A stretch of 64,000 nt of DNA from Candidatus Woesearchaeota archaeon (lineage in GTDB: Archaea; Nanobdellota; Nanobdellia; Woesearchaeales; UBA10216): contig JACPBY010000001.1 in NCBI GenBank assembly GCA_016180065.1, forward strand, positions 30,633 to 94,632, written 5' to 3'. Below the pieces are notes generated by a model. It saw only the letters and a program-made list of their open reading frames with translations, made no database searches and was not told the origin of the DNA. Shown here one piece after another: positions 7,284 through 25,349 of this stretch (positions are counted from its first letter, which is position 1; each line of letters starts with the position of its first letter). A program made the translations under genes and the position numbers.

Positions 7284-8735
7284 TTAAAAGCTTAGCCTGA
7301 CATTCCTAATCCTGAGGCTTGGGCCTCCAAACCACACAGGAATTGCCTGCATTGGCTCTGCTTTGCCACAGGTTCCGGCATGGTACTCTGTGTTGTCTGC
7401 TGCAGCATCAACAGCGCTCCAAAGCTTAGGGGTTGAAATTTCAATCGTAGGCCTCCAAACCGGCTCTGCAAGCCTCCCATCACGTATCAGGTAAGCTTCT
7501 GCGCCAGTATACTTCGCGTTCAGCCTCTTATCATCAATGTTCCATTCCATAAAGTTCCTGAAATAAACCCCAAGCCTGACCGATTCTATGAGCTCGTCTT
7601 CCTTGTAGCTGCCAGGCTTGAAAACAGTGTTTGCCATCCTGACTATCTGTTCCCTGTCATAGCCTGTAGCCCTTGCAGCACCGTTGCTTTTTGTTTTAAG
7701 AATGGCTGATGTCTCACGGTTATGGAGCAGCCCGCCTATAATTCCTTTTCTGATAAGCCAGCGCTCACTCGCCTTTACCCCCTCATCATCATAAAGATAA
7801 TAGCCGAAGCTGCCAGGGATTGTAGGGTCATCAACGATGTTAACAGCACCAGAGCCAATCGTTGTCCCGACACTGCCCGGATGGAGGAAGGACTCGCCTG
7901 CCTGTGCCGCTTCCCTGCCAAGGACGCGGTCTGCCTCATACGGGTGGCCCACGCTTTCGTGGACCATTATCCCTGTAATTTGCGGGGCAACAACAAGGTC
8001 AACTTTTTCCTTTGGAGGACTAATAGCTTTCTTCATGTTGGACAAGGTTGCCTTAACTTCCCCGGCAAGGAGCTCAGGAAACTTGTATTCATAAATTGTT
8101 TCAAAGCCACCTGCTGCGCCGTATTGCCAATAGCGCTGGGCAGTCCTCCCGGCTTCCTCCACAGTTATGAAATACCAAAAATCAGTTCTGGGAATTTTTG
8201 AAAGAATCCTGCTGCCTTCACTGTTGGCAAAATATTTCTCTGTATAGAAGTCAGACATAGAAAAGAACCTGCCAGGCACGTTTGCCTTTACAGCCTTTAT
8301 TGCTTTCTCAGTGTCAAAAAGGACAGCAAGCTTCTCCTTCGGGCTTAAATCAACAAGCTTAACCCTTTGCTTAACTTCATAACCGGCCTTATTTGTTTCC
8401 TCATCGCTGAACTTCACCTTTTCTCCGATCCGGGAAGCAGCAGAGGTAAGCCTTGCAGCTTTTTCAACAACAGCCCGGACATTTTCCCTTGACAGGCCAT
8501 TGGTGCAGGCAAAGCCAAGCGAGCCTTTCATGACAATCCTTACCCCAATGCCTGCTACCCTGTCAAAGCCCGCAGCCTGAGGAACCCCGTTTTTCAGGAC
8601 AAAGCCGTTGACTGACGTTGCCTCAAGCCGGGCATCGGCGTAACTTGCGCCAATCTTCCCTGCGTAGTCAATGGCAAAATGCGCGAGGTCAAGGTCAAGA
8701 GCATCATCAGGCTTAACTGAAGACTTAGCAGGCAT
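7284..8735 (-). CDS. tldD: TldD family zinc metalloprotease.
   Basis: HESVGH zinc-binding motif in VHESVGHPYEADRV. Length and architecture fit TldD. Confidence 0.85.
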   Translation of the reverse strand: MPAKSSVKPDDALDLDLAHFAIDYAGKIGASYADARLEATSVNGFVLKNGVPQAAGFDRVAGIGVRIVMKGSLGFACTNGLSRENVRAVVEKAARLTSAASRIGEKVKFSDEETNKAGYEVKQRVKLVDLSPKEKLAVLFDTEKAIKAVKANVPGRFFSMSDFYTEKYFANSEGSRILSKIPRTDFWYFITVEEAGRTAQRYWQYGAAGGFETIYEYKFPELLAGEVKATLSNMKKAISPPKEKVDLVVAPQITGIMVHESVGHPYEADRVLGREAAQAGESFLHPGSVGTTIGSGAVNIVDDPTIPGSFGYYLYDDEGVKASERWLIRKGIIGGLLHNRETSAILKTKSNGAARATGYDREQIVRMANTVFKPGSYKEDELIESVRLGVYFRNFMEWNIDDKRLNAKYTGAEAYLIRDGRLAEPVWRPTIEISTPKLWSAVDAAADNTEYHAGTCGKAEPMQAIPVWFGGPSLRIRNVRLSF

Positions 8736-15073: not shown

Positions 15074-17458
15074 ATGGCCATGAAAAAAGAGGGGAACAAC
15101 AGAAGAACGGGAGAGATAGCAGGCTATCATGGGCTTAGTGCAGGCATTGAAAACCTGCCATCGCAACTTCTCAAGCTCAAGCCAGCATACGACGGGCTGA
15201 TAAACAGCCTCACAGAACAGCTTTCACGGAAAACAAAAGAGATAGAGCGGATAAGGGACTACACAACCCAACTCGAGGAAGGGGAGAAAGGCCTTGTGCA
15301 GGAACTGACACAGCAGCTTACGCTAAAAGATGAGGAGATAAGCAGGATAGCGTCGCTTTACGCGAAAAAAGAAGCCGAAAACAGAAAGCTGTCTTCAGTT
15401 CTCGAAGCCCAACTGGCATCACAGAAAGTTCATGCCGACAGAATCAAAACCCTCCTGGTGAGGAAAGAGGAAGAAACTGCAAGGCTCGTGGAAAGCCTCA
15501 GAAAAGAGCTTGAGCGGAAAGGCACGGAAATCGCATCGCTAAGGGGCATACTCATTGCCAAAGGCCAGACCGCAGCAGCCAGCATAAGCTTCCCAGACGT
15601 GAGTTCCTACTCAAGGCAAACTGAGGCAATGCAAAGGCAACTCTCAAGCAAAGACCTTGAACTCAAAAAGCTTGAACAGATGCTTCTGGAAGAGCAAAGG
15701 CTGGGCAAATCAGTGCAGGCAAGGCTCAAGGAGCAGCTAACACAATCAACAGCCATGGTTGAAGAGCTGAAATCCTTCATCATTGAAAAAGAAAAGCTGG
15801 CACAAAACCTTGAATCGGCATTTGAAAAAAGGCTTGCAGCAAAAGAAGATGAAGCCAGGAGAATAAGAAGCCTTTTCGCAGCAAAGCCAGAAACAAGGCT
15901 GCACAAAGAGCTGGATGGGCTGAAGTCAGAGCTCCAGATAAAGGAAGAAACCTCCAGGCTGGCAGCAGAGGAAATTGCAAAGCTAAAAGAGCAGCTTGGA
16001 ATGCTGAGGAAAAGGCTTGACGAAAGGCAGAAAATGTTCTTTGAAAGCGAAAGGTCATATGAAGAGCTGATAGTCAAGCTCAGGGAGCAGCACGAAACCA
16101 GAATCAAGACCCTGATTCACGAGGCTTCACAAAAGGAAGCAGTGCTAAAATCAGCAATTGAAGAAGAAAAGGTGAAGCTCCACAGGGAAACAGCCATGAT
16201 GAAGGAAAAAGAAAACCAAGTAGAAGATGCGCTTCAGGCATTCGCAAGGACATCCCAACAGCTGATACGGCTGGGTGAGGCTGCCACGCTTAGCGAGCCC
16301 GAAGCAGGCGTCATGGTTGCCAGCCTGAAGCAGAAGGAGAAAGAGCTTGAAGAAAAAGAAAACCAGATGCTGGAGGAAAAGAAGCTCGCAGAAGAACAGC
16401 TTGGGAAAGAAAAGGAGCTTGCCGAACAGCAATTGGAAGAAGAGCGAAAAAACGCAGAGGAACGGCTTGAGCAGGAAAAGAAGCACATGGAAGAAAGGTC
16501 AAAATACATCCACTCCAAAGAAGCCGAACTGAAAAAAATGCTGGCAGAAACAGAAGCCAAAATTGCAGAGCTGAAAAGCAAAGAAACAGAAATCGAAAGG
16601 AAAGAAGCAACAATGGCGAGAAAGGAACAACTTCTCCTGAAAGAACAGGAAGCGCTGAGCAAAGAGCTGGACGTGCTAACCAACGCAGGCATAGAAATCA
16701 CAAGGTCAAAAAACTACATCAAGCAAAAGATTGAGCAGTTTACAAGCCTTGAAATTCAGCCACAGCAGGCAAAGCAACAGCCAACGATAAACGCGCCAGA
16801 AACGCCACAGCCAAAAACACCTTCAACACAACAGTTAAGCTTCGGAGAGCTTGGAGGCAGCGAAGCCCAGATGGCTGAGGAAGAGGAAAACCTGGGCACA
16901 CCAAAGTTTGACGGCATAACCTCTGCGGAAACAGAAGTCAGGGCAGCCCCTGCCGAATTGGGAAATGAAGAAGAAGCAATAACACCTGCAGCTGCCAAAA
17001 CAAAGCAAAAAGAATCCGCAATTAAGCTCAAAACAGGCAAAGCCAAGGCAGCAGCAATAAGGCAGAAAAAAACAAAGACAAAAGCAGCACCCAAGAAAAC
17101 AAGCAGGCTGAAAAAATCCAGGCTCACTGTTAAAACAAATGCAATAAAAACAAAGCTGATTCAGAAGAAACCGCTAAAAACTGCTTTTAAGCAACAACCA
17201 AAGAAAATCGTTGCAGCAGCTGCCGCCGTAGCAGGAGAGCCCGGGAAAGGCCTCGCTGCAGAAGAGATGCACGGAAAGCCCGGCCAGGAGCTCTTCACAG
17301 AGCTAGGAGGCTATTCAGAGCTGGATGAGATAAAATCAGTAGTGGACGTGGGCATGCAGCACGGCGACAGCATAGAACAGATAAGGCAAAGCCTCATATC
17401 ATCAGGATACTCAAAACAAAACATTGAAAAAGCTCTGGAAAACATCAAGAAAGGATAA
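15074..17458 (+). CDS. Long coiled-coil protein (794 aa) with a K-rich basic linker and a C-terminal UBA-like helical domain.
   Basis: Roughly 500 aa of heptad-like E/K/L/Q-rich sequence. The C-terminus DSIEQIRQSLISSGYSKQNIEKALENIKKG resembles UBA/NAC-type domains. TATA ATTATATA at 15031-15038. Confidence 0.65.
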   Translation: MAMKKEGNNRRTGEIAGYHGLSAGIENLPSQLLKLKPAYDGLINSLTEQLSRKTKEIERIRDYTTQLEEGEKGLVQELTQQLTLKDEEISRIASLYAKKEAENRKLSSVLEAQLASQKVHADRIKTLLVRKEEETARLVESLRKELERKGTEIASLRGILIAKGQTAAASISFPDVSSYSRQTEAMQRQLSSKDLELKKLEQMLLEEQRLGKSVQARLKEQLTQSTAMVEELKSFIIEKEKLAQNLESAFEKRLAAKEDEARRIRSLFAAKPETRLHKELDGLKSELQIKEETSRLAAEEIAKLKEQLGMLRKRLDERQKMFFESERSYEELIVKLREQHETRIKTLIHEASQKEAVLKSAIEEEKVKLHRETAMMKEKENQVEDALQAFARTSQQLIRLGEAATLSEPEAGVMVASLKQKEKELEEKENQMLEEKKLAEEQLGKEKELAEQQLEEERKNAEERLEQEKKHMEERSKYIHSKEAELKKMLAETEAKIAELKSKETEIERKEATMARKEQLLLKEQEALSKELDVLTNAGIEITRSKNYIKQKIEQFTSLEIQPQQAKQQPTINAPETPQPKTPSTQQLSFGELGGSEAQMAEEEENLGTPKFDGITSAETEVRAAPAELGNEEEAITPAAAKTKQKESAIKLKTGKAKAAAIRQKKTKTKAAPKKTSRLKKSRLTVKTNAIKTKLIQKKPLKTAFKQQPKKIVAAAAAVAGEPGKGLAAEEMHGKPGQELFTELGGYSELDEIKSVVDVGMQHGDSIEQIRQSLISSGYSKQNIEKALENIKKG

Positions 17459-17486: not shown

Positions 17487-18851
17487 TCAGGACCTGGCGC
17501 CGCACTTGCCTGTCCACTGACCGACACCAGCCTGGCAAACCTCCACGTTCCCACTGCCGCAATCCTTAACCTGGCCGACCAAGCATAGTGGAGGAACTGG
17601 CGGAAGAGGCGGTATCGCTGCGGTGCATCCTGCAGGGTAATAGTTCCATTTGAGAGAGCCGCAGTTGCAGGTGAGTGCAACAGAGTCCCACTGGCCACCA
17701 GAGCTTGTGCATTTGCCCATGACATCACTGTAGCGCGGGTTGGTATTAGGATTTGATGCTTGCTGCTGTTGCTGTGCCCCTCCTTGCTGACCGTCCGCCT
17801 GGCCGCCGGTGTCAGGCTCGCCAAGCAGGTGCTTCACAAGAATCTTGGTGTTTCTAGAGACAAGGTAGTTGTAATCAAGCTTCAGGTCAACCTTCTTTAC
17901 AGCATCTTCATTGGCAGTAGCCTGAATGCACGAGAACGTGCCCTCCCCCCCACTAAGCCTGAGATAGCCCGTGAATTTTCCAGTAGGATCTGCTGTCCCG
18001 CCCGTCAAGCCGCTGCATGATATGCCCGGCATGCCCGTAATGACGCCGACAAGAACCTGGTCCTGCTTTGAAAACTGGGTTTTGTCACATTCTGTTACAG
18101 GTATAGTTTTATCAACCTTAAACACGCTGCCGCTACCAACATTTTTTACATTAAAAGTGAGCAAAACCTTGTTCCTGCCGCCAACACTTTCCTTAACCGA
18201 AGTAACGTGAACAGGCGCACCGGAACTAAACACCTGCTTCTGCTCAGCTATCTGGCAAACGCCGGAAACGCGCTTTGTAGCATCAGCCCTTATGCACACA
18301 TCAGTGGCAGCCTTGGTCTGGTAAGTGTAGCAAAGGTCAGCCTGTATTGGGAACTCGTTATTGCCCTGAAGCTGCCTCTGGTACGCCAGGTTGGTAAACT
18401 GAACATCTGCAACCGAGCCAGGTATTTTATTGCCGTCAGGGTCTTTCTTAACGCCGTCAAGGGAGCTCTCAGGATTCTTGCCCTTCAGCAAAACCTCCTG
18501 CCCATCCACGTTTACCGTGACGACTTTCCCGCCAGCCGTAGTAGTTTTCAGAAAGTCACTTGCTGAAATGCCGCTTATGGTAATATGCGACCCTGCTTTT
18601 TGCACATCTGATTCCCCGATGTTTTCCATCAGCATGATAATGTCAAACGTGTTGACAGGCTTGCCGCCACTCATTTGCGCATCAGTAACCTCTGAAGGAG
18701 GAGAGTTCTCGGCAAACTTCATGGTCAGGCCTTCTGTGCCGCCAATAAAAGGAGTTGTGTCAGAAGATGCTGGCCCCTTGCCGCCGCCCTTGCAGCCGGC
18801 AACAGCCAAGGCAATTGCAATCAAAAGAACAGCTAAAACCCCTTTTCGCAT
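17487..18851 (-). CDS. Secreted lipoprotein with a Cys-rich C-terminal tail. Paralog of the protein encoded at 20495..21730.
   Basis: Signal peptide with lipobox MRKGVLAVLLIAIALAVAG|C. Shares a conserved block LCYTYQTKAATDVCIRADATK with the paralog. TATA TATTTAAAT at 18883-18891, 32 bp upstream. Confidence 0.7.
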   Translation of the reverse strand: MRKGVLAVLLIAIALAVAGCKGGGKGPASSDTTPFIGGTEGLTMKFAENSPPSEVTDAQMSGGKPVNTFDIIMLMENIGESDVQKAGSHITISGISASDFLKTTTAGGKVVTVNVDGQEVLLKGKNPESSLDGVKKDPDGNKIPGSVADVQFTNLAYQRQLQGNNEFPIQADLCYTYQTKAATDVCIRADATKRVSGVCQIAEQKQVFSSGAPVHVTSVKESVGGRNKVLLTFNVKNVGSGSVFKVDKTIPVTECDKTQFSKQDQVLVGVITGMPGISCSGLTGGTADPTGKFTGYLRLSGGEGTFSCIQATANEDAVKKVDLKLDYNYLVSRNTKILVKHLLGEPDTGGQADGQQGGAQQQQQASNPNTNPRYSDVMGKCTSSGGQWDSVALTCNCGSLKWNYYPAGCTAAIPPLPPVPPLCLVGQVKDCGSGNVEVCQAGVGQWTGKCGARS

Positions 18852-18895
18852 TTCAATCACAACTTAAAACTGGAGACAGGCGTATTTAAATGTTT

Positions 18896-20416
18896 CTAAT
18901 CAAAATCTTCAGTTTCACCTATGGCCGCCGGCGCGGGAGGGAGCAGGTCGCCAGAGGTTGCCGAGGCTTGTTTTAATCCTAATTCACAATCATCTTCGGC
19001 AAACACCAAGAAACCCTTGCCAACCGGCACAGCATCCTCGACTCTCATGCCCTTGTTAATGTGTGCCCATCTGGTGTTTTCTGCGTCATAGGAATAACCC
19101 ACAAAATCAGCCCCGCCAAACGTCTTGCAGGTGCCGAGCAGGTCTGAAAACCTTTTTCCTTCCCATTCGGGCTGGGCTGATACCATGTTCCAGCCTTTCT
19201 CTAAAGGAAACTGGTAGTCGGAAGGAAAACCCGTCACGCTACGCACACTGCAGGCATCGCCCAGGTTGTAGAGCCAGACCGCCTTGAAAAGCCTAAACGA
19301 CTGGCCTGGGCTAAGCGCATCAGTCAGAATAGCTGTATCATAATCACTAATCCGAGGATTCCATGAATGAACAGCCCTGTCAATCTTGCTTTTCTGGCAA
19401 CTGGTTGACTTAAGGTAATACAGCATGTCTGCTCCGACAATGTTCCAGCCAGGGGATATTGCGACAGGAAAGCCTTTTTCCGCTTTATCCTTCGCTTCCC
19501 CAGCTGCGCTGCATTTTGCTTCGCATGCCGCTGACTCGTACCATTCGTTGTTTATCGTGCATTGCGAAATGCAGGCTGCCCCGCCATCTTGTTCCACTTC
19601 ACATCTCTTGTCAGTGCACCTTTCCACAGCAGCATTTTGCAGGCAGAACCTGATGCCGTAAGGCAGGCTGTCAACTGCTGTCGTAAATGTCTTGAGCAAA
19701 ACAGTACCCCCTCCAATCTTTGCCGCGTCAAAATTCCCAAGCTCGTGGAAGTCAACAACCCTGACAACAGTTGCCTCAGAAGCGCCTTGGGGCAAAAGAG
19801 TTACTGTAAGCGTGCCAGCCAGGCTGCTGACTTTATCTGCCTTTATCCGGTAAGTCCTGCCGCCATGAACATAATCCTTTGTTTCCCCTTCCTTTATCAA
19901 AGCATTTTCGCCTTTCCCGCAGTCTGCCCGGCCTTCTGCAGCTTTCGCCTCGGCCGCAGCTTCCCTTGCATCCTTGCATTTTGCCTCGCATTCTGTTGGC
20001 TCGTACCATTCGTTGTTTATCGTGCATCTTGAGAGGCAGCCTATGCCGCTTGGGTCGCAATCCAGGTCAGTGCATAAGCGGGCTTGTTGAAGCTGTTTCT
20101 TCTTCTCCTCCTCTGCCTTCAGCTTTTTCTCATTAGCTGAAGCTATTTCCACCGCCTGGCATTTTCGCTCACAATCTGAAGAAGAATACCAATTGCCGTC
20201 TGTTGTGCACTGTGAAAAACAGACAGCCTCACCATTCGGGTCAGCATCACACTGCCGGTCAGTGCACCTTGCGCCGCTGACCTGCGCTCCAGTGATATGG
20301 CCTGTGCCGCTGGCCAGGCTGCCATACCAGTCAAAGACTGCCAGGGCAGCGAGCAGCACAACAGCGATTGCACCAACTTTTAACCTGCCAGAGCCGTCCA
20401 TCACTGAAACCTTCAT
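18896..20416 (-). CDS. Secreted or membrane-anchored protein with three copies of a novel 6-Cys module (CTDxxC...C.S.CT[TI][DN].[EN]WY...CExKC) separated by K/E/A-rich linkers, plus a C-terminal globular domain.
   Basis: N-terminal hydrophobic signal/anchor. Three repeats read directly from the translation. TATA TATTTAAA at 20452-20459, 36 bp upstream. Confidence 0.7.
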   Translation of the reverse strand: MKVSVMDGSGRLKVGAIAVVLLAALAVFDWYGSLASGTGHITGAQVSGARCTDRQCDADPNGEAVCFSQCTTDGNWYSSSDCERKCQAVEIASANEKKLKAEEEKKKQLQQARLCTDLDCDPSGIGCLSRCTINNEWYEPTECEAKCKDAREAAAEAKAAEGRADCGKGENALIKEGETKDYVHGGRTYRIKADKVSSLAGTLTVTLLPQGASEATVVRVVDFHELGNFDAAKIGGGTVLLKTFTTAVDSLPYGIRFCLQNAAVERCTDKRCEVEQDGGAACISQCTINNEWYESAACEAKCSAAGEAKDKAEKGFPVAISPGWNIVGADMLYYLKSTSCQKSKIDRAVHSWNPRISDYDTAILTDALSPGQSFRLFKAVWLYNLGDACSVRSVTGFPSDYQFPLEKGWNMVSAQPEWEGKRFSDLLGTCKTFGGADFVGYSYDAENTRWAHINKGMRVEDAVPVGKGFLVFAEDDCELGLKQASATSGDLLPPAPAAIGETEDFD

Positions 20417-20494
20417 TCACACCTTTTTAACGTAGATTCTGAGCGCCCTGCTATTTAAACCTTTTTACAAAACTCTGCCGCAAAAAGAGAAATT

Positions 20495-21730
20495 TTAGCC
20501 ATCTATTAACAGCCCGCGGCTGCCAGAGCTGCTGCCAATTTGCGGTGCAGTTGGCACAGAAGGCGGTGCAGCAGGGTTTGGTTCAGGCTCCTGCTGCAGC
20601 TGCACTGGCTGTGAAGTGGTTGGCGCTTGTTGATTTTGTTGCGTTTGAGAGAACCCCTTCTCAACCCTTACAGGAACAGGCTCTGAAGTCTGGGTGTAGC
20701 CGTAGCTAAGCTCAACTTTAAGAGGAGTCACAAATGTTCCTGAGCCTTCATCAAAGTCATCGGCCTCGTAGCTGCACAGTATGTAATCATTAGCAAGGTT
20801 CCCTGAAAGGACCTTTTCGGTTTCGCTGCACCTGATGCCGCTGCCAAGCACCTTGCCGTTAAGCTCAACCTTTTCCAGCCTGACAATGTTAAGCTTGGGC
20901 TTGCCCTTATCATCGCCAGGTTTAGAAGATGAGCCTGAAGCTGCAGAAGGTGCGCCTGCCGTGCAGAACAAGCTCAGCCGGGTGCTGTCAATTATCAGCC
21001 CTTTCCCGATGTTGCCGATGAAAATCTTGAATTTCGGCTTTACCTTCTTGTTTGACTTCTCAGTCAGGATTTCTATCTTTTTCACAGCCACAGGCGCGCC
21101 CTGGCTTTTCAGCGCTATGGGAGCTTTGGCGTCGCAGACCTTTCTCTGCTTCTGGAAGCTTTGGGTTTGGGATGCATCTATGCAAACATTTGCAGTGAGC
21201 TTTGTGCCGTACTTGTAGCAAACAGTCGCCAGCAAAGCAGTATCTACACTATCATTGCTGTTCACAAACTCGTTTGCCTTCAGAACCAGGGTAACGCCCT
21301 CAACAGAGCCTGCAACCGTTTCGGGGGACTCCCTGCCAGTCATCGCATTTACTTCGATCAGTGGCAGTGGCTTTTTGAACTGAACTTTTTCAGTGTCCTC
21401 TGCCTCTGCGTTTTCCAGCGTAAAAGCCCCTTTAGTGTCCACGACAGTCACTATGGCTTCAGGGACTGCAACAGCCCCTTTGTTCGCCAGGACCAGCAAA
21501 ACCTCAGAAGAGCCACCTTCGCTTACCAGGCTTGGGACGCTTTCAGGCGAGAAAGCAGCGCTAAAGCCCTCCGCGCCAACATAAACATCAGGAACATCAA
21601 TGCCTGTGCCCTTCTTCCCCCCAAACCTGCCGCCAAACTGGGTGCAGCCAGCAGCCAAAAGCGCAACTGCAAGCAGGACTGCTATAAGGAAAGGGCGCAA
21701 ACGCAAGGCAGAGGCCTGAGCCATTTTCAT
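20495..21730 (-). CDS. Secreted lipoprotein. Paralog of the protein encoded at 17487..18851.
   Basis: Lipobox LLAAG|C. Conserved block VCYKYGTKLTANVCIDASQ. P/Q/S-rich C-terminal tail. Start overlaps the upstream gene's stop (ATGA), suggesting an operon. Confidence 0.7.
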   Translation of the reverse strand: MKMAQASALRLRPFLIAVLLAVALLAAGCTQFGGRFGGKKGTGIDVPDVYVGAEGFSAAFSPESVPSLVSEGGSSEVLLVLANKGAVAVPEAIVTVVDTKGAFTLENAEAEDTEKVQFKKPLPLIEVNAMTGRESPETVAGSVEGVTLVLKANEFVNSNDSVDTALLATVCYKYGTKLTANVCIDASQTQSFQKQRKVCDAKAPIALKSQGAPVAVKKIEILTEKSNKKVKPKFKIFIGNIGKGLIIDSTRLSLFCTAGAPSAASGSSSKPGDDKGKPKLNIVRLEKVELNGKVLGSGIRCSETEKVLSGNLANDYILCSYEADDFDEGSGTFVTPLKVELSYGYTQTSEPVPVRVEKGFSQTQQNQQAPTTSQPVQLQQEPEPNPAAPPSVPTAPQIGSSSGSRGLLIDG

Positions 21731-23874
21731 TCAGCTCCTTCAGCTTTCGGGCAGCCATCGTCGGGCTTATCATCAACACAGTCAGTCCACACGCCCCCTT
21801 CCTTGCATACCTGAGTGCCTGGGCACTCCTGCCCGTTAACAGCGAAATTGCAGTCTTTCTCTTTCCCAAGGACACATCCTTTGACCTCAAAGCTGGCTGC
21901 TTTCTTGGTTGAAAAAACGTATTTGGTATGCGCCTTAAACTGGGCTCCGACCCAGTCAGCACCGCCCAACACAGCCGGTGGGAGGAACATCTTGCAGCTG
22001 AACTGAACGCCATCACCAACAGGCCTTAACTCACCTGTTTTATCATTGCGCAGAATTTTTTGGGAAACCGTGTACGTTTTAGGGCCTCCAACGTTTTCAG
22101 GGTTGAGGTCCTCAAAATAGCTCTCTCTATCATTACTGCCTGCTTTGCTTCGGCTGCAAGCAGGGTCATTTGTCTTAAGGCTGGCGCCCCTCGGCAGGGT
22201 AAGCGTGAACTCCTCAATCCCTGCAAGCTCACCATCCCAGGCACCGCTTCCAGCTACAAAAATGACAAGGTTCACCACAGAGCCTTTAACAGTGTCCAGG
22301 CTAAAAGGCGAGGTTACCAGCTCAACAGGGCCCCAGGTTATCGCAACAGGACCGTTGTCATACTCAGCTTTTGCAGGAGGAATCTTGCTGACTTCAGCAG
22401 GGTCCTCACCTGCATCAAGAAGGGCTTCAATCTTACTTGAGCTCATAAACGCAGTGCTGAGGTCAGCATCTGCCTCAAAGCCGTACCTGACATCAAACTC
22501 AACAGTATGGGTTCCTTGTTCAAGGCTGTCAAACAGGCACTTTGCTGTCCTTGGCCTCTTGTAGCCAACAACAGCAGCAGGCTTTCCTTTTGACATTGCC
22601 ATGGTGAGGTCTTCGTCACTAAAAGGCTCAACAACCAGCCCCTCCGAGGCAGTTGACTCTTCATTGCAATCAATACCTACAATCCCTATCACCCTTTTAG
22701 CAGGGTCATCAACAGGCAAAGGATTTGGGACTGTCAGGATTATGCTTGGGGCTGCAGCTTCGTAAAACCCTTCCTGCATGTTGAACACCTTCGGCATGTT
22801 CGGGTCAGGAATAAGCTGAAGGCCCATCTTGGGCTGCTCCTTTGCCGTGCCAAAGCCAAAAGCCTCCCCAAGCTTTTCCTGTGCTGAAGCGATTGGAGCC
22901 CTGAGAAACTCCCCGGAAACAATCCGTTTGAAATTGCTCTTGAAGCTGTCTATAACACCCTGCTTGAGACTTTCTTCGGCTTCAGTCAGGCCTGCATGCG
23001 ATACATAAGCTGCCTTTATCTGCGGAAGGCTGGCTACAAGATAAAAAAGAATCAACGCTCCAAGGATTTTCCTCGCCGTCCTTGATTCAGGGTAAAATGC
23101 GAATATAGAATACATCAGAGGCAGGGGGAAAAGCATCCTGTTAAGCAGAAAGCCAGCTACGAACTGAATGTAGCCAAAGTTAGCCACATAGTCCAGAGCG
23201 CGCTCCCTTATCAGAGGAAGGCCGTATGTTTCAAACAGCATAAAAACCGGCAGCCACTTTATCGCTCCCGGGATTTGGAGATTAACATAAAAAAAGCCCG
23301 ACCCTATGAGAAACGCGATAAGCAGAATATTAGAACTTAGTATGCCGATGTCAAAATTGCCGTTCCACGCGTTCAGGAAACCGAAGATTGAATAAAAGTG
23401 CACCGAAGCGATTATTGCGCGCCAGAAAGTGATGGTCCTGGTGGTAAGCGCCAAAATAAAAAAGCCCCCTATGCCAAAACCCATGCGCAGCCACGCTGTC
23501 CTGCTGACGTCAAAGCCAGTTCTCCAATCAAAAAAGTAGAGCAATGCTGTAAAAACAACAATGCCGCTGGCAAGATTCTCAGGCTTCAGGTCAGCAAACC
23601 AGCCAAAAATCCCCTTGACCGGCGTCATGGCAGCCTGGCCAGCGGCAAAACCAACTCCTGTGGCAGCGCCCTGCAGGACCGGCCCGGCAGCACCGGCAGC
23701 CTTTGCGGCCAACGCAGCTTTCGGAGAAGCAACAGAACCTACAAACTTGGCAGCCCCGCCCAGGGCTGAGAAAATGCCTGTGTTAGGCGCGGCAGCGCTT
23801 CCAGTGTTTCGCATGCCCTGCGCAAGCCTCGCAAGATAGCTTGGGTCAATCGCCCCAGCACCAGCCATAGCCAC
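21727..23874 (-). CDS. Large polytopic membrane protein (715 aa). N-terminal A/G-rich segment, about 6-7 TM helices, and a large C-terminal ectodomain ending in a Cys-rich knot.
   Basis: Hydrophobic helices between residues 100 and 320. C-terminus GCVLGKEKDCNFAVNGQECPGTQVCKEGGVWTDCVDDKPDDGCP. Confidence 0.7.
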   Translation of the reverse strand: MAMAGAGAIDPSYLARLAQGMRNTGSAAAPNTGIFSALGGAAKFVGSVASPKAALAAKAAGAAGPVLQGAATGVGFAAGQAAMTPVKGIFGWFADLKPENLASGIVVFTALLYFFDWRTGFDVSRTAWLRMGFGIGGFFILALTTRTITFWRAIIASVHFYSIFGFLNAWNGNFDIGILSSNILLIAFLIGSGFFYVNLQIPGAIKWLPVFMLFETYGLPLIRERALDYVANFGYIQFVAGFLLNRMLFPLPLMYSIFAFYPESRTARKILGALILFYLVASLPQIKAAYVSHAGLTEAEESLKQGVIDSFKSNFKRIVSGEFLRAPIASAQEKLGEAFGFGTAKEQPKMGLQLIPDPNMPKVFNMQEGFYEAAAPSIILTVPNPLPVDDPAKRVIGIVGIDCNEESTASEGLVVEPFSDEDLTMAMSKGKPAAVVGYKRPRTAKCLFDSLEQGTHTVEFDVRYGFEADADLSTAFMSSSKIEALLDAGEDPAEVSKIPPAKAEYDNGPVAITWGPVELVTSPFSLDTVKGSVVNLVIFVAGSGAWDGELAGIEEFTLTLPRGASLKTNDPACSRSKAGSNDRESYFEDLNPENVGGPKTYTVSQKILRNDKTGELRPVGDGVQFSCKMFLPPAVLGGADWVGAQFKAHTKYVFSTKKAASFEVKGCVLGKEKDCNFAVNGQECPGTQVCKEGGVWTDCVDDKPDDGCPKAEGAE

Positions 23875-23981
23875 TTAACAGCACCTCTTTCAAAATTCAG
23901 CAGCAGCTGAATTTTGGGTATAGCTCTTAAATTCAACGTTTAAAACCTTTTCCTTTAATCCAATGCTGCAGCATTGGATTA

Positions 23982-25193
23982 TCAGCTGCATTCCTCAGCC
24001 CTTCTGCAGTCAAGAAGTACATTGAGTTCCAGGATGTGCAAGGTGGTTTCGGGGACTATCCTCAGGAAGTTTGTGCCTGCCACAAGGAATGAGTCAATGT
24101 TTTTGGAGAAGTTTGCAGCCCTCGTGTCAAGCCTCGTTTTCTGGCTGTTGATTTCCAGATTAGCGGTTTTGCGTTCCTTGTCGTCAACAAACCTCAGCTG
24201 GAGACTGGAGTTTATTGTGTTGTTTTCAATCCTCCTGAACACGCTGCCGTTTACGCTGAAGAAATAAACTGGGAATATTGGCTCTTCCAGCTTTGTTCTG
24301 AGAACTATCCGGTCAAGCAGATAAGTGCCTTTTTCAGCCACAAAACTGATTTCATTCTTTCCAGCCACAATGTCTTTCGGATCAAGCTGCTGCCTCTCAG
24401 GAACGCCACAGTCAGGCACCTTTGACGCAATCAGGATGCCATTAAGGTTTACGGTAAGCTTGCCGACGTCCCTCACGTTGCAGTCAACAAAGTAGCTCAG
24501 GGATGCCTCTGACAGAAGGTTGGCTTCTTCCCCACCAATCACAAAAGTTTGCACTGCTTCCTTGTTTTCAAGGCGCTCAACTGTGGCAGTTACCTTGACA
24601 TCCCTGAGGTCGTAGAAGTTCTTTGAGAAAGGCTTATACCACGGCACAGGTTCTGTGGAGAACTCCAGAAGGTTCTCCTCCTTCAAGGCCAGGCTCAGCG
24701 GCTCTGTGAAGCTGTCAACCTCACCTGCAAAAATCTCGTTATCGTTAAGCTTTATGATGAGATTGCCTTTGTGGCTGGCAACAGAAAACGCAAGCTTTGC
24801 GTTCTCAACCTTGTCTTTTAAGGCAAGAATCAGCGATTTTCTCTTGTTTGTGCTTCGCGAAGTTTCGGCGTAAACAGAATCTGCGCTTTTCAAAACAATA
24901 TCCTCTTTCTTGGTGAAGAGGTTGAATGAAGGTATGCGGTGCTCAAACTCTTTCTCCTTAAGCCGCGTCAGGGTGCCGGGGTTTTCGCTAAGCAAGGTTG
25001 AGCCGCGCAGAGTGCCAGGCACAACAGCCCCCACAGGGGATGGTTCCTTATCGAGCATCTTGTCCCTGTCAGCCTTTGGCAGAAACAGGAGATACAACAG
25101 GATAAACCCTGCAATGGTTATGACCAGAATGGCAGCATTCGCCCCGCTAGGAGGTCCGGGAGGAGCCTGTGCCCTTTTTCCAAAACAAGCCAT
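23982..25193 (-). CDS. Membrane-anchored protein of unknown function (N-terminal TM, large extracytoplasmic domain).
   Basis: N-terminal hydrophobic anchor AAILVITIAGFILLYLLFL. TATA ATATATATTTAAAT at 25211-25224, about 20 bp upstream of the start. Confidence 0.6.
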   Translation of the reverse strand: MACFGKRAQAPPGPPSGANAAILVITIAGFILLYLLFLPKADRDKMLDKEPSPVGAVVPGTLRGSTLLSENPGTLTRLKEKEFEHRIPSFNLFTKKEDIVLKSADSVYAETSRSTNKRKSLILALKDKVENAKLAFSVASHKGNLIIKLNDNEIFAGEVDSFTEPLSLALKEENLLEFSTEPVPWYKPFSKNFYDLRDVKVTATVERLENKEAVQTFVIGGEEANLLSEASLSYFVDCNVRDVGKLTVNLNGILIASKVPDCGVPERQQLDPKDIVAGKNEISFVAEKGTYLLDRIVLRTKLEEPIFPVYFFSVNGSVFRRIENNTINSSLQLRFVDDKERKTANLEINSQKTRLDTRAANFSKNIDSFLVAGTNFLRIVPETTLHILELNVLLDCRRAEECS

Positions 25194-25349
25194 GCTTTAT
25201 TCTCCAGTAGATATATATTTAAATGTTTTCTTCTGATGCGCTCCTTGGAAATCCTTGCTTTCGAGGCTGCCTCGGTTTAGCTGACGCTAAACCAACTTAG
25301 CCTCCCCTTCAGCAAGCCGTTGAGAGTTTGCAAAAAGAAAAGGAACACC

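Follow-up and report, generated by a model that had tools for sequence, protein, structure and literature searches.

Introduction

Small cysteine-rich repeats in mosaic microbial surface proteins are a kind of element already familiar, and a few described modules recall the one treated here in the spacing of their cysteines. The six cysteines of the LNR repeat of Notch (PF00066) are spaced approximately 4-8-3-4-6, and LNR-A of human Notch1 reads C-x4-C-x8/9-C-x3-C with an acidic loop containing Gly, a Trp some 6-7 residues downstream of Cys4 and a further Cys at 12 residues from Cys4. The Kunitz/BPTI domain (PF00014) has a spacing of 8-15-7-12-3 over about 51 residues and ends in C-x11/12-C-x3-C, and in alpha-hairpinins both CX3C motifs lie in antiparallel helices with two disulfides. 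The present analysis concerns a protein of 506 amino acids (aa), the product of the open reading frame (ORF) 18896..20416 on the minus strand of a 64,000-nucleotide (nt) stretch of DNA from Candidatus Woesearchaeota archaeon (assembly GCA_016180065.1, contig JACPBY010000001.1, positions 30,633 to 94,632; hereafter the window, whose own numbering is used throughout), deposited as hypothetical protein MBI2143564.1, HYU17_00240, Candidatus Woesearchaeota. It holds three copies of a six-cysteine module with the spacing C-x4-C-x9-C-x3-C-x11-C-x3-C, the second loop being reduced to 6 residues in module 2 (loops of 9, 6 and 9). Judged from the sequences searched, this module is a real and undescribed family with one host protein in one lineage, and we lean, without great assurance, towards reading its copies as disulfide-bonded structural caps or joints of helical spacers in the stalk of a surface protein that bears a conserved head, here called the GWN domain.

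The initial annotation of this DNA, made from the letters alone, had stated that the cysteine spacing fits neither the EGF nor the TNFR class, and both the spacing and a Pfam search at E<=10 agree with it: EGF-like domains (PF00008) have C-x-C between Cys4 and Cys5 and TNFR cysteine-rich repeats (PF00020) a C-x0-2-C-x2-C core, in contrast to the 4-9(6)-3-11-3 spacing found here, and neither family was matched. In the order of its cysteines, the likeness to the Notch LNR is limited to the first four, since the present module is without the LNR Cys5 and the calcium-binding D-G-x-D-C ending and has an additional helical C-x3-C; its acidic Gly loop, its Trp and its Cys 12 residues beyond Cys4 also recall LNR-A. 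The LNR gave no Pfam match at E<=10, and a PDB search with the module profile brought up no Notch chains. The C-terminal C-x11/12-C-x3-C of Kunitz domains resembles the last three cysteines of the module, with different overall spacing and length, and the modelled pinning of a C-x3-C helix to a preceding hairpin is also seen in Kunitz domains and cystine-stabilised mini-proteins. No Pfam match of the modules was obtained to Kunitz (PF00014), ShK (PF01549) or the Dictyostelium CTDC repeat (PF00526), whose spacings differ from 4-9-3-11-3. The CX3C-x11-CX3C pattern of alpha-hairpinins and kappa-hefutoxin does occur in the module; identity with alpha-hairpinins finds no support in the low-confidence models (pLDDT 50-70), which put C3-x3-C4 in a strand. 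At the level of the whole protein, stalk-and-head surface proteins with ER/K single alpha-helix spacers are alike in having an anchor, long Lys/Glu helices, small joints and a conserved distal domain, a design analogy only that implies no homology, and the present helices could instead oligomerise. The kind of element is known and the sequence of this module is new.

Sequence and occurrence of the six-cysteine modules

The features of the gene and its product are as follows, the basis of each being given in brackets where there is one to name.

20452..20459, minus strand: TTTAAATA, archaeal TATA-box-like octamer, ~40 nt upstream of the ATG (sequence reading)
20309..20389, minus strand: N-terminal hydrophobic signal-anchor helix, aa 10-36, GRLKVGAIAVVLLAALAVFDWYGSLAS (hydropathy and model helix 10-36)
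20159..20266, minus strand: six-Cys module 1, aa 51-86 (C-x4-C-x9-C-x3-C-x11-C-x3-C)
20075..20158, minus strand: linker 1, aa 87-114, Lys/Glu-rich (modelled as part of a single unbroken helix 79-116)
19976..20074, minus strand: six-Cys module 2, aa 115-147 (C2-C3 loop shortened to x6)
20000..20027, plus strand: 28-nt exact repeat, module 2 copy (465 nt from the other copy, in frame)
19922..19975, minus strand: linker 2, aa 148-165, Ala/Glu/Lys-rich (within model helix 140-161)
19643..19921, minus strand: Cys-flanked beta domain, aa 166-258, 'CGKGENALIKEGETKDYVHGGRTYRIKADKV...IRFC' (model and phmmer alignments to P0006 and P0009)
19511..19618, minus strand: six-Cys module 3, aa 267-302
19535..19562, plus strand: 28-nt exact repeat, module 3 copy (encodes CTINNEWYE on the minus strand)
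19475..19510, minus strand: linker 3, aa 303-314 (within model helix 295-310)
18977..19474, minus strand: C-terminal 'GWN' beta domain, aa 315-480 (phmmer matches, invariant columns, pLDDT ~95)
18899..18976, minus strand: disordered C-terminal tail, aa 481-506, with 'LLPPAPA' (model and the tails of relatives)

The three modules announced for this ORF by the initial annotation were found at aa 51-86 (CTDRQCDADPNGEAVCFSQCTTDGNWYSSSDCERKC), 115-147 (CTDLDCDPSGIGCLSRCTINNEWYEPTECEAKC) and 267-302 (CTDKRCEVEQDGGAACISQCTINNEWYESAACEAKC). The framework of the pattern that had been written for them holds, except that its 'x3-5-G-x2-C' part does not describe modules 1 and 2 with their loops of 9 and 6 residues (9 again in module 3), and that the segment between W-Y and the next Cys, given as x3-4, is x4 in all three. 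Beside the cysteines, the invariant positions are the T-D after Cys1, the loop Gly, the Ser before and the Thr after Cys4, the W-Y and the E-x-K between Cys5 and Cys6, and pairwise identity between modules is 43-56% (41-56 bits). A degenerate DNA pattern for C-T-x4-W-Y-x4-C-E-x-K-C matched the window 3 times, each time in the gene of MBI2143564.1, and gave 0 matches in 100 shuffles. Each unit of the protein has an even number of cysteines: every module has 6, the beta domain is flanked by 2 and the head conserves 4. There is no CxxC. The identical protein is encoded in 5 independent Logan assemblies (SRR12113419, 22, 31, 32, 33) and is therefore not an assembly artefact.

The module matches no established family, as had been supposed from the letters alone. 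In Pfam there was no match for the whole protein at E<=1 nor for the isolated modules at E<=10, NCBIfam gave no relevant match, and no match to the modules was obtained in the PDB by single sequence or by module profile. Foldseek comparisons of the full-length model with PDB and BFVD and of the module model with PDB returned nothing meaningful (query-normalised TM-score <=0.39, PDB E >0.05), the full-length model being a poor query owing to its elongated, multi-domain shape. Searched exhaustively with phmmer, 1.84 billion cluster representatives yielded 43 matches, including the protein's own fragment P0001. Only this fragment was matched through the modules; all others align by the anchor, the beta domain or the C-terminal domain. 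Since one diverged module by itself would score below the phmmer threshold, distant single copies could escape this search. At the DNA level, the strict module signature gave 0 matches in the GTDB representative genomes (596 Gb) and 0 in JGI metagenome contigs. The looser signature C-x3-C-T-x4-W-Y-x4-C-x3-C gave at least 119 matches in GTDB, and those inspected among the matches listed included none resembling the module; on translation they proved to be out-of-frame, to contain stop codons, or to be short ORFs or low-complexity Cys/Trp strings. A word-indexed search returned nothing for the full-length protein (it saturated at 8000 candidates, probably via the Lys/Glu/Ala linkers), no candidate for the module profile and only the own fragment for the C-terminal domain.

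A 28-nt repeat shared by modules 2 and 3

The 28-nt identity between modules 2 and 3 reported by the initial annotation was reproduced: the string is present exactly twice in the window, at 19535-19562 and 20000-20027, with 0 occurrences expected by chance, and consists of the last base of the preceding codon followed by the nine codons for CTINNEWYE. It is nested in a 91-nt direct repeat of 78% identity, both copies of which are coding paralogues within one gene. In a codon alignment of modules 2 and 3, 19 of the 24 identical residues are encoded by identical codons, against 12.5 expected with saturated synonymous sites, and nearly all of this excess comes from the CTINNEWYE run, whose nine consecutive identical codons have P ~0.003 under saturation and local codon usage. 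Beyond this core, the two modules show 65% DNA identity and many amino-acid changes. Module 1 is saturated against both others, with identical codons at 9/21 and 10/17 residues for 10.8 and 9.5 expected.

The identity had been attributed to a recent intragenic duplication or gene conversion. This stands for the short tract between modules 2 and 3, and does not stand for a recent duplication of a whole module, because modules 2 and 3 have diverged beyond the core and module 1 is saturated. The repeats would fit an old paralogous family with either a short conversion tract or a local nucleotide constraint between modules 2 and 3. A further explanation would have the repeat matter at the DNA level, the 28-nt cores serving as substrates of programmed or frequent recombination, be it phase or size variation through loss or gain of the 465-nt interval in frame, or retroelement-driven diversification. 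The copies do lie in frame at a distance of exactly 465 nt, with the result that recombination would yield an intact 351-aa protein, and the synonymous sites of the core are unexpectedly identical (P ~0.003 as above). However, the predicted 351-aa deletion product was not found in a collection of 15 billion proteins, the gene is full-length in all five Logan assemblies, and 28 nt is short for homologous recombination. As to a retroelement, the 20 mismatches of the 91-nt repeat are spread over 10 base-change types (G>A being the commonest, 6/20) with no concentration at adenines, and no reverse transcriptase was matched among the Pfam-scanned ORFs of the window. With these points taken together, recombination through the cores is hardly to be credited. 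Diversity-generating retroelements are recognised by two repeats of ~100 nt that differ at template adenines, with a reverse transcriptase nearby; a target of such an element (VR/TR, variable and template repeats) is not indicated here, given the mismatch spectrum and scanned ORFs that include no reverse transcriptase.

Predicted structure of the modules

AlphaFold2 was run on the full-length protein with a 43-sequence alignment and gave a mean predicted local distance difference test score (pLDDT) of 74.5, with values of ~95 in the GWN domain, 80-90 at residues 170-210 of the beta domain (aa 166-258), which is modelled all-beta, and only 50-70 in the modules. In all three of these, at this low confidence, a hairpin is formed by C-T-[IT], a turn of [ND][NG] and E-W-Y, with 2-3 short beta strands, and the hairpin recurs when the module is modelled by itself (pLDDT 65). 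A helix starts ~3 residues before Cys5, takes C-E-x-K-C into its first two turns and runs unbroken into the Lys/Glu/Ala linker. The predicted helices 79-116, 140-161 and 295-310 (38, 22 and 16 residues) each begin within a module in this manner, in agreement with the initial annotation, which had placed a Lys/Glu/Ala-rich helical linker after each module. The same low-confidence models put C3-x3-C4 in the beta strand before the hairpin turn, leaving only C5-x3-C6 helical.

The cysteines could be thought to bind metal, in which case the last four (C-x3-C-x11-C-x3-C) would form a zinc-finger-like beta-beta-alpha site, C1 and C2 either another site or a small loop closed by a disulfide, and the module would be stabilised without oxidative folding in an anoxic habitat. 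Such an arrangement resembles the classical C-x2-4-C-x12-H-x3-5-H finger, the predicted topology of a hairpin followed by a helix is compatible with it, and the habitat is probably anoxic. The models, on the other hand, place C3 and C4 before the hairpin turn and not flanking it as a zinc finger would need; the modules have no CxxC or CPxC knuckle and matched no zinc-finger or other metal-binding family in Pfam at E<=10; the location is predicted to be extracellular; and conserved cysteines are even in number in the other domains of MBI2143564.1 too, as is typical where they pair in disulfides. Metal binding is consequently held to be very unlikely, and putative disulfides are favoured over metal sites because of the even cysteine count per unit, the lack of CxxC and the predicted extracellular location.

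Relatives sharing the anchor and the GWN domain

The GWN domain (~165 aa) is common to MBI2143564.1 and 42 other uncharacterised proteins (phmmer E 4e-32 to 8e-4 over aa ~315-480), and nearly all 43 phmmer matches fall in this C-terminal region. The family is marked by GWN[LIMF][VI] occurring twice, W.Y..G..C, P.W.GK..SD, VG.GF...DC and four conserved cysteines, the corresponding motifs of MBI2143564.1 being PGWNIVG, AVWLYN.G..C, KGWNMVSAQPEW.GK..SDL.G.C and VGKGF....DC. By phmmer as well as by the invariant and near-invariant columns, MBI2143564.1 belongs with the other members (P0002-P0043). The domain is absent from Pfam, and a scan of JGI metagenomes with a GWN profile gave 78 pattern matches, 0 of which were confirmed by tblastn; nothing was found in the literature on this protein family or on these assemblies.

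The N-terminal anchor is also shared, anchor and GWN domain being common to MBI2143564.1 and P0002-P0012. It is the sole hydrophobic segment of the protein (best 19-residue window, mean Kyte-Doolittle 2.08) and has Arg/Lys just before it; such a single N-terminal stretch fits a signal anchor, and we infer that the remainder would be extracellular. The anchor motif K-[GA]-G-x-IVVLLLAALAVFD-x-Y...ITGA is kept in the closest homologues (P0002, P0005-P0012, P0022, P0027), and phmmer aligns the anchor of MBI2143564.1 to those of P0002, P0006, P0007, P0010 and P0027. Archaeal class III (type IV pilin-like) signals have a [KR]-[GA] cleavage site followed at once by ~20 hydrophobic residues; MBI2143564.1 reads R-L-K-V-G-A-IAVVLLAALAV and its relatives K-G-G-V-IVV or K-A-G-V-IV, which comes near this rule and does not fit it, and the Pfam-scanned ORFs of the window included no gene for a pilus ATPase or peptidase.

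Between anchor and head, the relatives contain an S-layer-like domain, CARDB repeats, a dockerin, an Ig-like segment or a GEGKTKTY-type beta domain. S_layer_C, CARDB and dockerin domains are hallmarks of surface proteins. PF05124 (S_layer_C, S-layer like family outer domain) was matched in Pfam only by P0029 (E 1.6e-9), with no match in MBI2143564.1 and none at E<=0.01 in P0002; by eye, P0002, P0022 and P0043 carry a segment resembling this domain of P0029, the Pfam scan having covered P0002 of these three. The beta domain at aa 166-258 is recurrent in the family as 'GEGKTKTY.VGGK.Y.V..DFVGS' (P0006, P0009, P0011, P0012 and others), the version in MBI2143564.1 having one Cys at each end.

A different six-cysteine module (W-x-C-x-D-G...C-x13-C-x3-C...K-C-G-V...C) is present in 5 family proteins, namely P0002, P0009, P0011, P0025/HYU17_03360 and P0027, of which HYU17_03360 is a paralogue from the same metagenome-assembled genome (MAG). 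Like the module of MBI2143564.1, it has six cysteines and stands after the anchor and before the beta domain or GWN head in same-position genes, and it shares a ...Y-E-S-A-A-x-C-x-x-K-C-S segment with it. It differs in that its N-terminal half has one Cys instead of C-T-D-x2-C...C and in that a KCGV...C extension, and no Lys/Glu/Ala helix, follows at its end. Comparison of both modules by hhalign gave a weak match (P 0.0045, probability 7.8%) of 20 columns that aligned only the C-x11-13-C-x3-C part, which hints at a shared origin.

Immediately beyond the last conserved Cys, most GWN proteins close, at their C-terminus or not far from it, with x-L-G, a stretch rich in Ser/Thr and P-P-x-[LI]-P, this ending being seen in P0013, P0015, P0018-P0020, P0023, P0024, P0026, P0028, P0030-P0038 and P0040-P0042; its counterpart in MBI2143564.1 is 'CELG...LLPPAPA' (18899-18976). 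The ending may be a sorting or attachment signal.

Gene neighbourhood and exchange of the middle region

The gene lies in an order that is conserved in related genomes, ACS (ADP-forming acetyl-CoA synthetase) - pelota - 403 - 715 - 411 - X - 457 - coiled-coil - RFC, where numbers are protein lengths in aa and X is MBI2143564.1 in the window. The Woesearchaeota MAG GCA_016184345.1 has the same order (ACS, pelota, 400-aa, 716-aa, 354-aa, P0002, 362-aa, coiled-coil, RFC), which continues to match the window beyond RFC with PRC, MscS, a Cas4-like nuclease and TyrRS; inserted in its cluster are a CARDB protein, a transposase and toxin-antitoxin genes. GCA_053532715.1 keeps this order up to the end of its contig, reading ACS, pelota, 399, 738, 366, CARDB protein, P0011 and one more gene, and P0009 and P0005 are found in the same neighbourhood on two short contigs. 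Gene X is thus represented by P0002 in the former genome and by P0011 in the latter.

Against their counterparts in the sister MAG L126, the window proteins show identities of 84% (RFC), 79% (ACS), 71% (pelota), 70% (MscS), 69% (403-aa protein), 51% (457-aa protein), 45% (411-aa protein), 41% (coiled-coil protein) and 27% (715-aa protein). MBI2143564.1 itself aligns to P0002 only over aa 273-427, with 37% identity: the genes in this position keep the anchor and the GWN head, and the middle is built of other modules. Conservation of the repeats in orthologs had been set beforehand as the test on which the module could fall, and they are not conserved there, the six-cysteine module being absent from P0002, P0011 and the near-positional relative P0009; it is therefore a private feature of the lineage and not a conserved family. 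On sequence comparison, these data show the predicted stalk as a fast-evolving, cassette-like region.

Such a turnover can be read in favour of another role, in which the modules would be binding units, i.e. adhesive or receptor-recognition mini-domains whose C2-C3 loop and post-W-Y segment contact a ligand of a host cell or matrix, the swapped middle of the sister genomes then representing changed host or ligand specificity. The central region is indeed wholly different between same-position genes whose neighbours are 70-84% identical, and the modules differ from one another mainly in the loops, with an invariant framework (Cys, T-D, S, T, W-Y, E-x-K). The host, an uncultured Woesearchaeote, is a tiny DPANN archaeon, and DPANN archaea are generally held to be episymbionts that depend on cell contact, a lifestyle that also counts for binding. 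However, Foldseek gave no sign of a ligand, lectin-like or adhesin fold, the element conserved family-wide is the C-terminal GWN domain, a more obvious candidate for the working head than the modules, and in the models the modules are fused straight to long charged helices, as elements of a stalk would be. A binding role for the modules is therefore considered unlikely, with some weight left to it.

The neighbourhood has further features of its own. Five co-oriented genes of membrane or secreted proteins occupy 17487-25193 on the minus strand (ORFs 23982-25193, 21727-23874, 20495-21730, 18896-20416 and 17487-18860), all of them without a match in Pfam or NCBIfam. The sister Woesearchaeota MAGs L126 and L128, and partly L129, keep these genes in the same order, and the cluster diverges far more rapidly than the housekeeping genes on either side (27-69% versus 70-84% identity). 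The 457-aa (17487-18860) and 411-aa (20495-21730) proteins, both on the minus strand, are distant paralogues (E ~1e-8) with lipobox-like N-termini, 'LAVAGCKGG' and 'LLAAGCTQFG'. The Cys-rich C-terminal tail of the 457-aa protein (CTSSGGQWDSVALTCNCGSLKWNYYPAGC) resembles the tail of the GWN-family protein P0014, a likeness that hints at a shuffling of small Cys modules among such surface proteins; the 715-aa protein (21727-23874, minus strand) likewise ends in a Cys-rich tail of the C-x-G-x-W-x-C type. The sister loci have gained a CARDB protein, a DDE transposase and MazE/PIN toxin-antitoxin genes (L126 3914-4575, 7863-9701 and 11542-12378; L128 577-2015 and 7892-9706), and in view of these insertions the locus would therefore be a hotspot for insertion and rearrangement. 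Adjoining RFC, a protein of 794 aa (15074-17458, plus strand), extremely Glu/Lys/Gln-rich and of coiled-coil type, gave no Pfam match and is conserved with 41% identity in related genomes (828 aa in L006, 810 aa in L126).

The other neighbours identified by the Pfam scan are archaeal in character, comprising the RFC small subunit, the eRF1/pelota-type protein, TrmB and class I and II tRNA synthetases; the syntenic counterparts of the eRF1/pelota-type protein in the sister genomes carry Pelota_N. A bacterial promoter/terminator scan was set aside, the host being an archaeon. On reading of the sequence, a GGTG Shine-Dalgarno-like motif lies immediately 5' of the ATG of MBI2143564.1. The octamer TTTAAATA is repeated identically at 25216-25223, 20452-20459 and 18883-18890 on the minus strand, 23-40 nt upstream of three start codons of the cluster, which suggests a separate promoter for each of these three genes. 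The N-termini of homologues read 'MDSGRIK...' or 'MIDSGKLK...' (compare 20401-20416, minus strand), and because of this the true start of MBI2143564.1 may be Met6 (ATG at 20401) instead of Met1, which would give a protein of 501 aa.

Discussion

In the reading towards which we lean, that of caps and joints in a stalk, the N-terminal signal-anchor helix would hold the protein in the membrane, an extracellular stalk would be assembled from exchangeable modules, and the GWN domain would form the distal head and presumably be the part that does the work. The six-cysteine modules are three paralogous copies of a small mini-domain private to the lineage, in each of which three putative disulfides would fasten the hairpin to the beginning of the helix, making the module a rigid cap or joint for a charged helical spacer. 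The modules and the Cys-flanked beta domain together would keep the head at a distance from the membrane. Several points weigh against this proposal: the modules are modelled with little confidence (pLDDT 50-70 within the full-length protein and 65 for the module by itself); the host is likely an anaerobe from groundwater-type samples, in which the formation of extracellular disulfides is not guaranteed; and a purely structural role is the default inference for such modules, whose variable loops could also bind a ligand.

A more far-reaching proposal would see the 403/715/411/X/457 cluster as a cell-contact apparatus in which X is the specificity determinant, with a fixed anchor and GWN head and a middle rebuilt from private Cys-rich cassettes, the module being a new fold and the 28-nt core the footprint of ongoing conversion. 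As a whole, this combination is speculative and thought rather improbable.

Since small Cys-rich surface repeats are commonplace, the module in itself is a modest novelty, and the syntenic block of uncharacterised membrane and secreted proteins in related Woesearchaeota and the GWN domain are more promising leads than the module. To our knowledge, the surface proteins of DPANN archaea are almost entirely unannotated. The present locus offers a concrete candidate for the biology of DPANN cell contact, together with a conserved and confidently modelled GWN domain.

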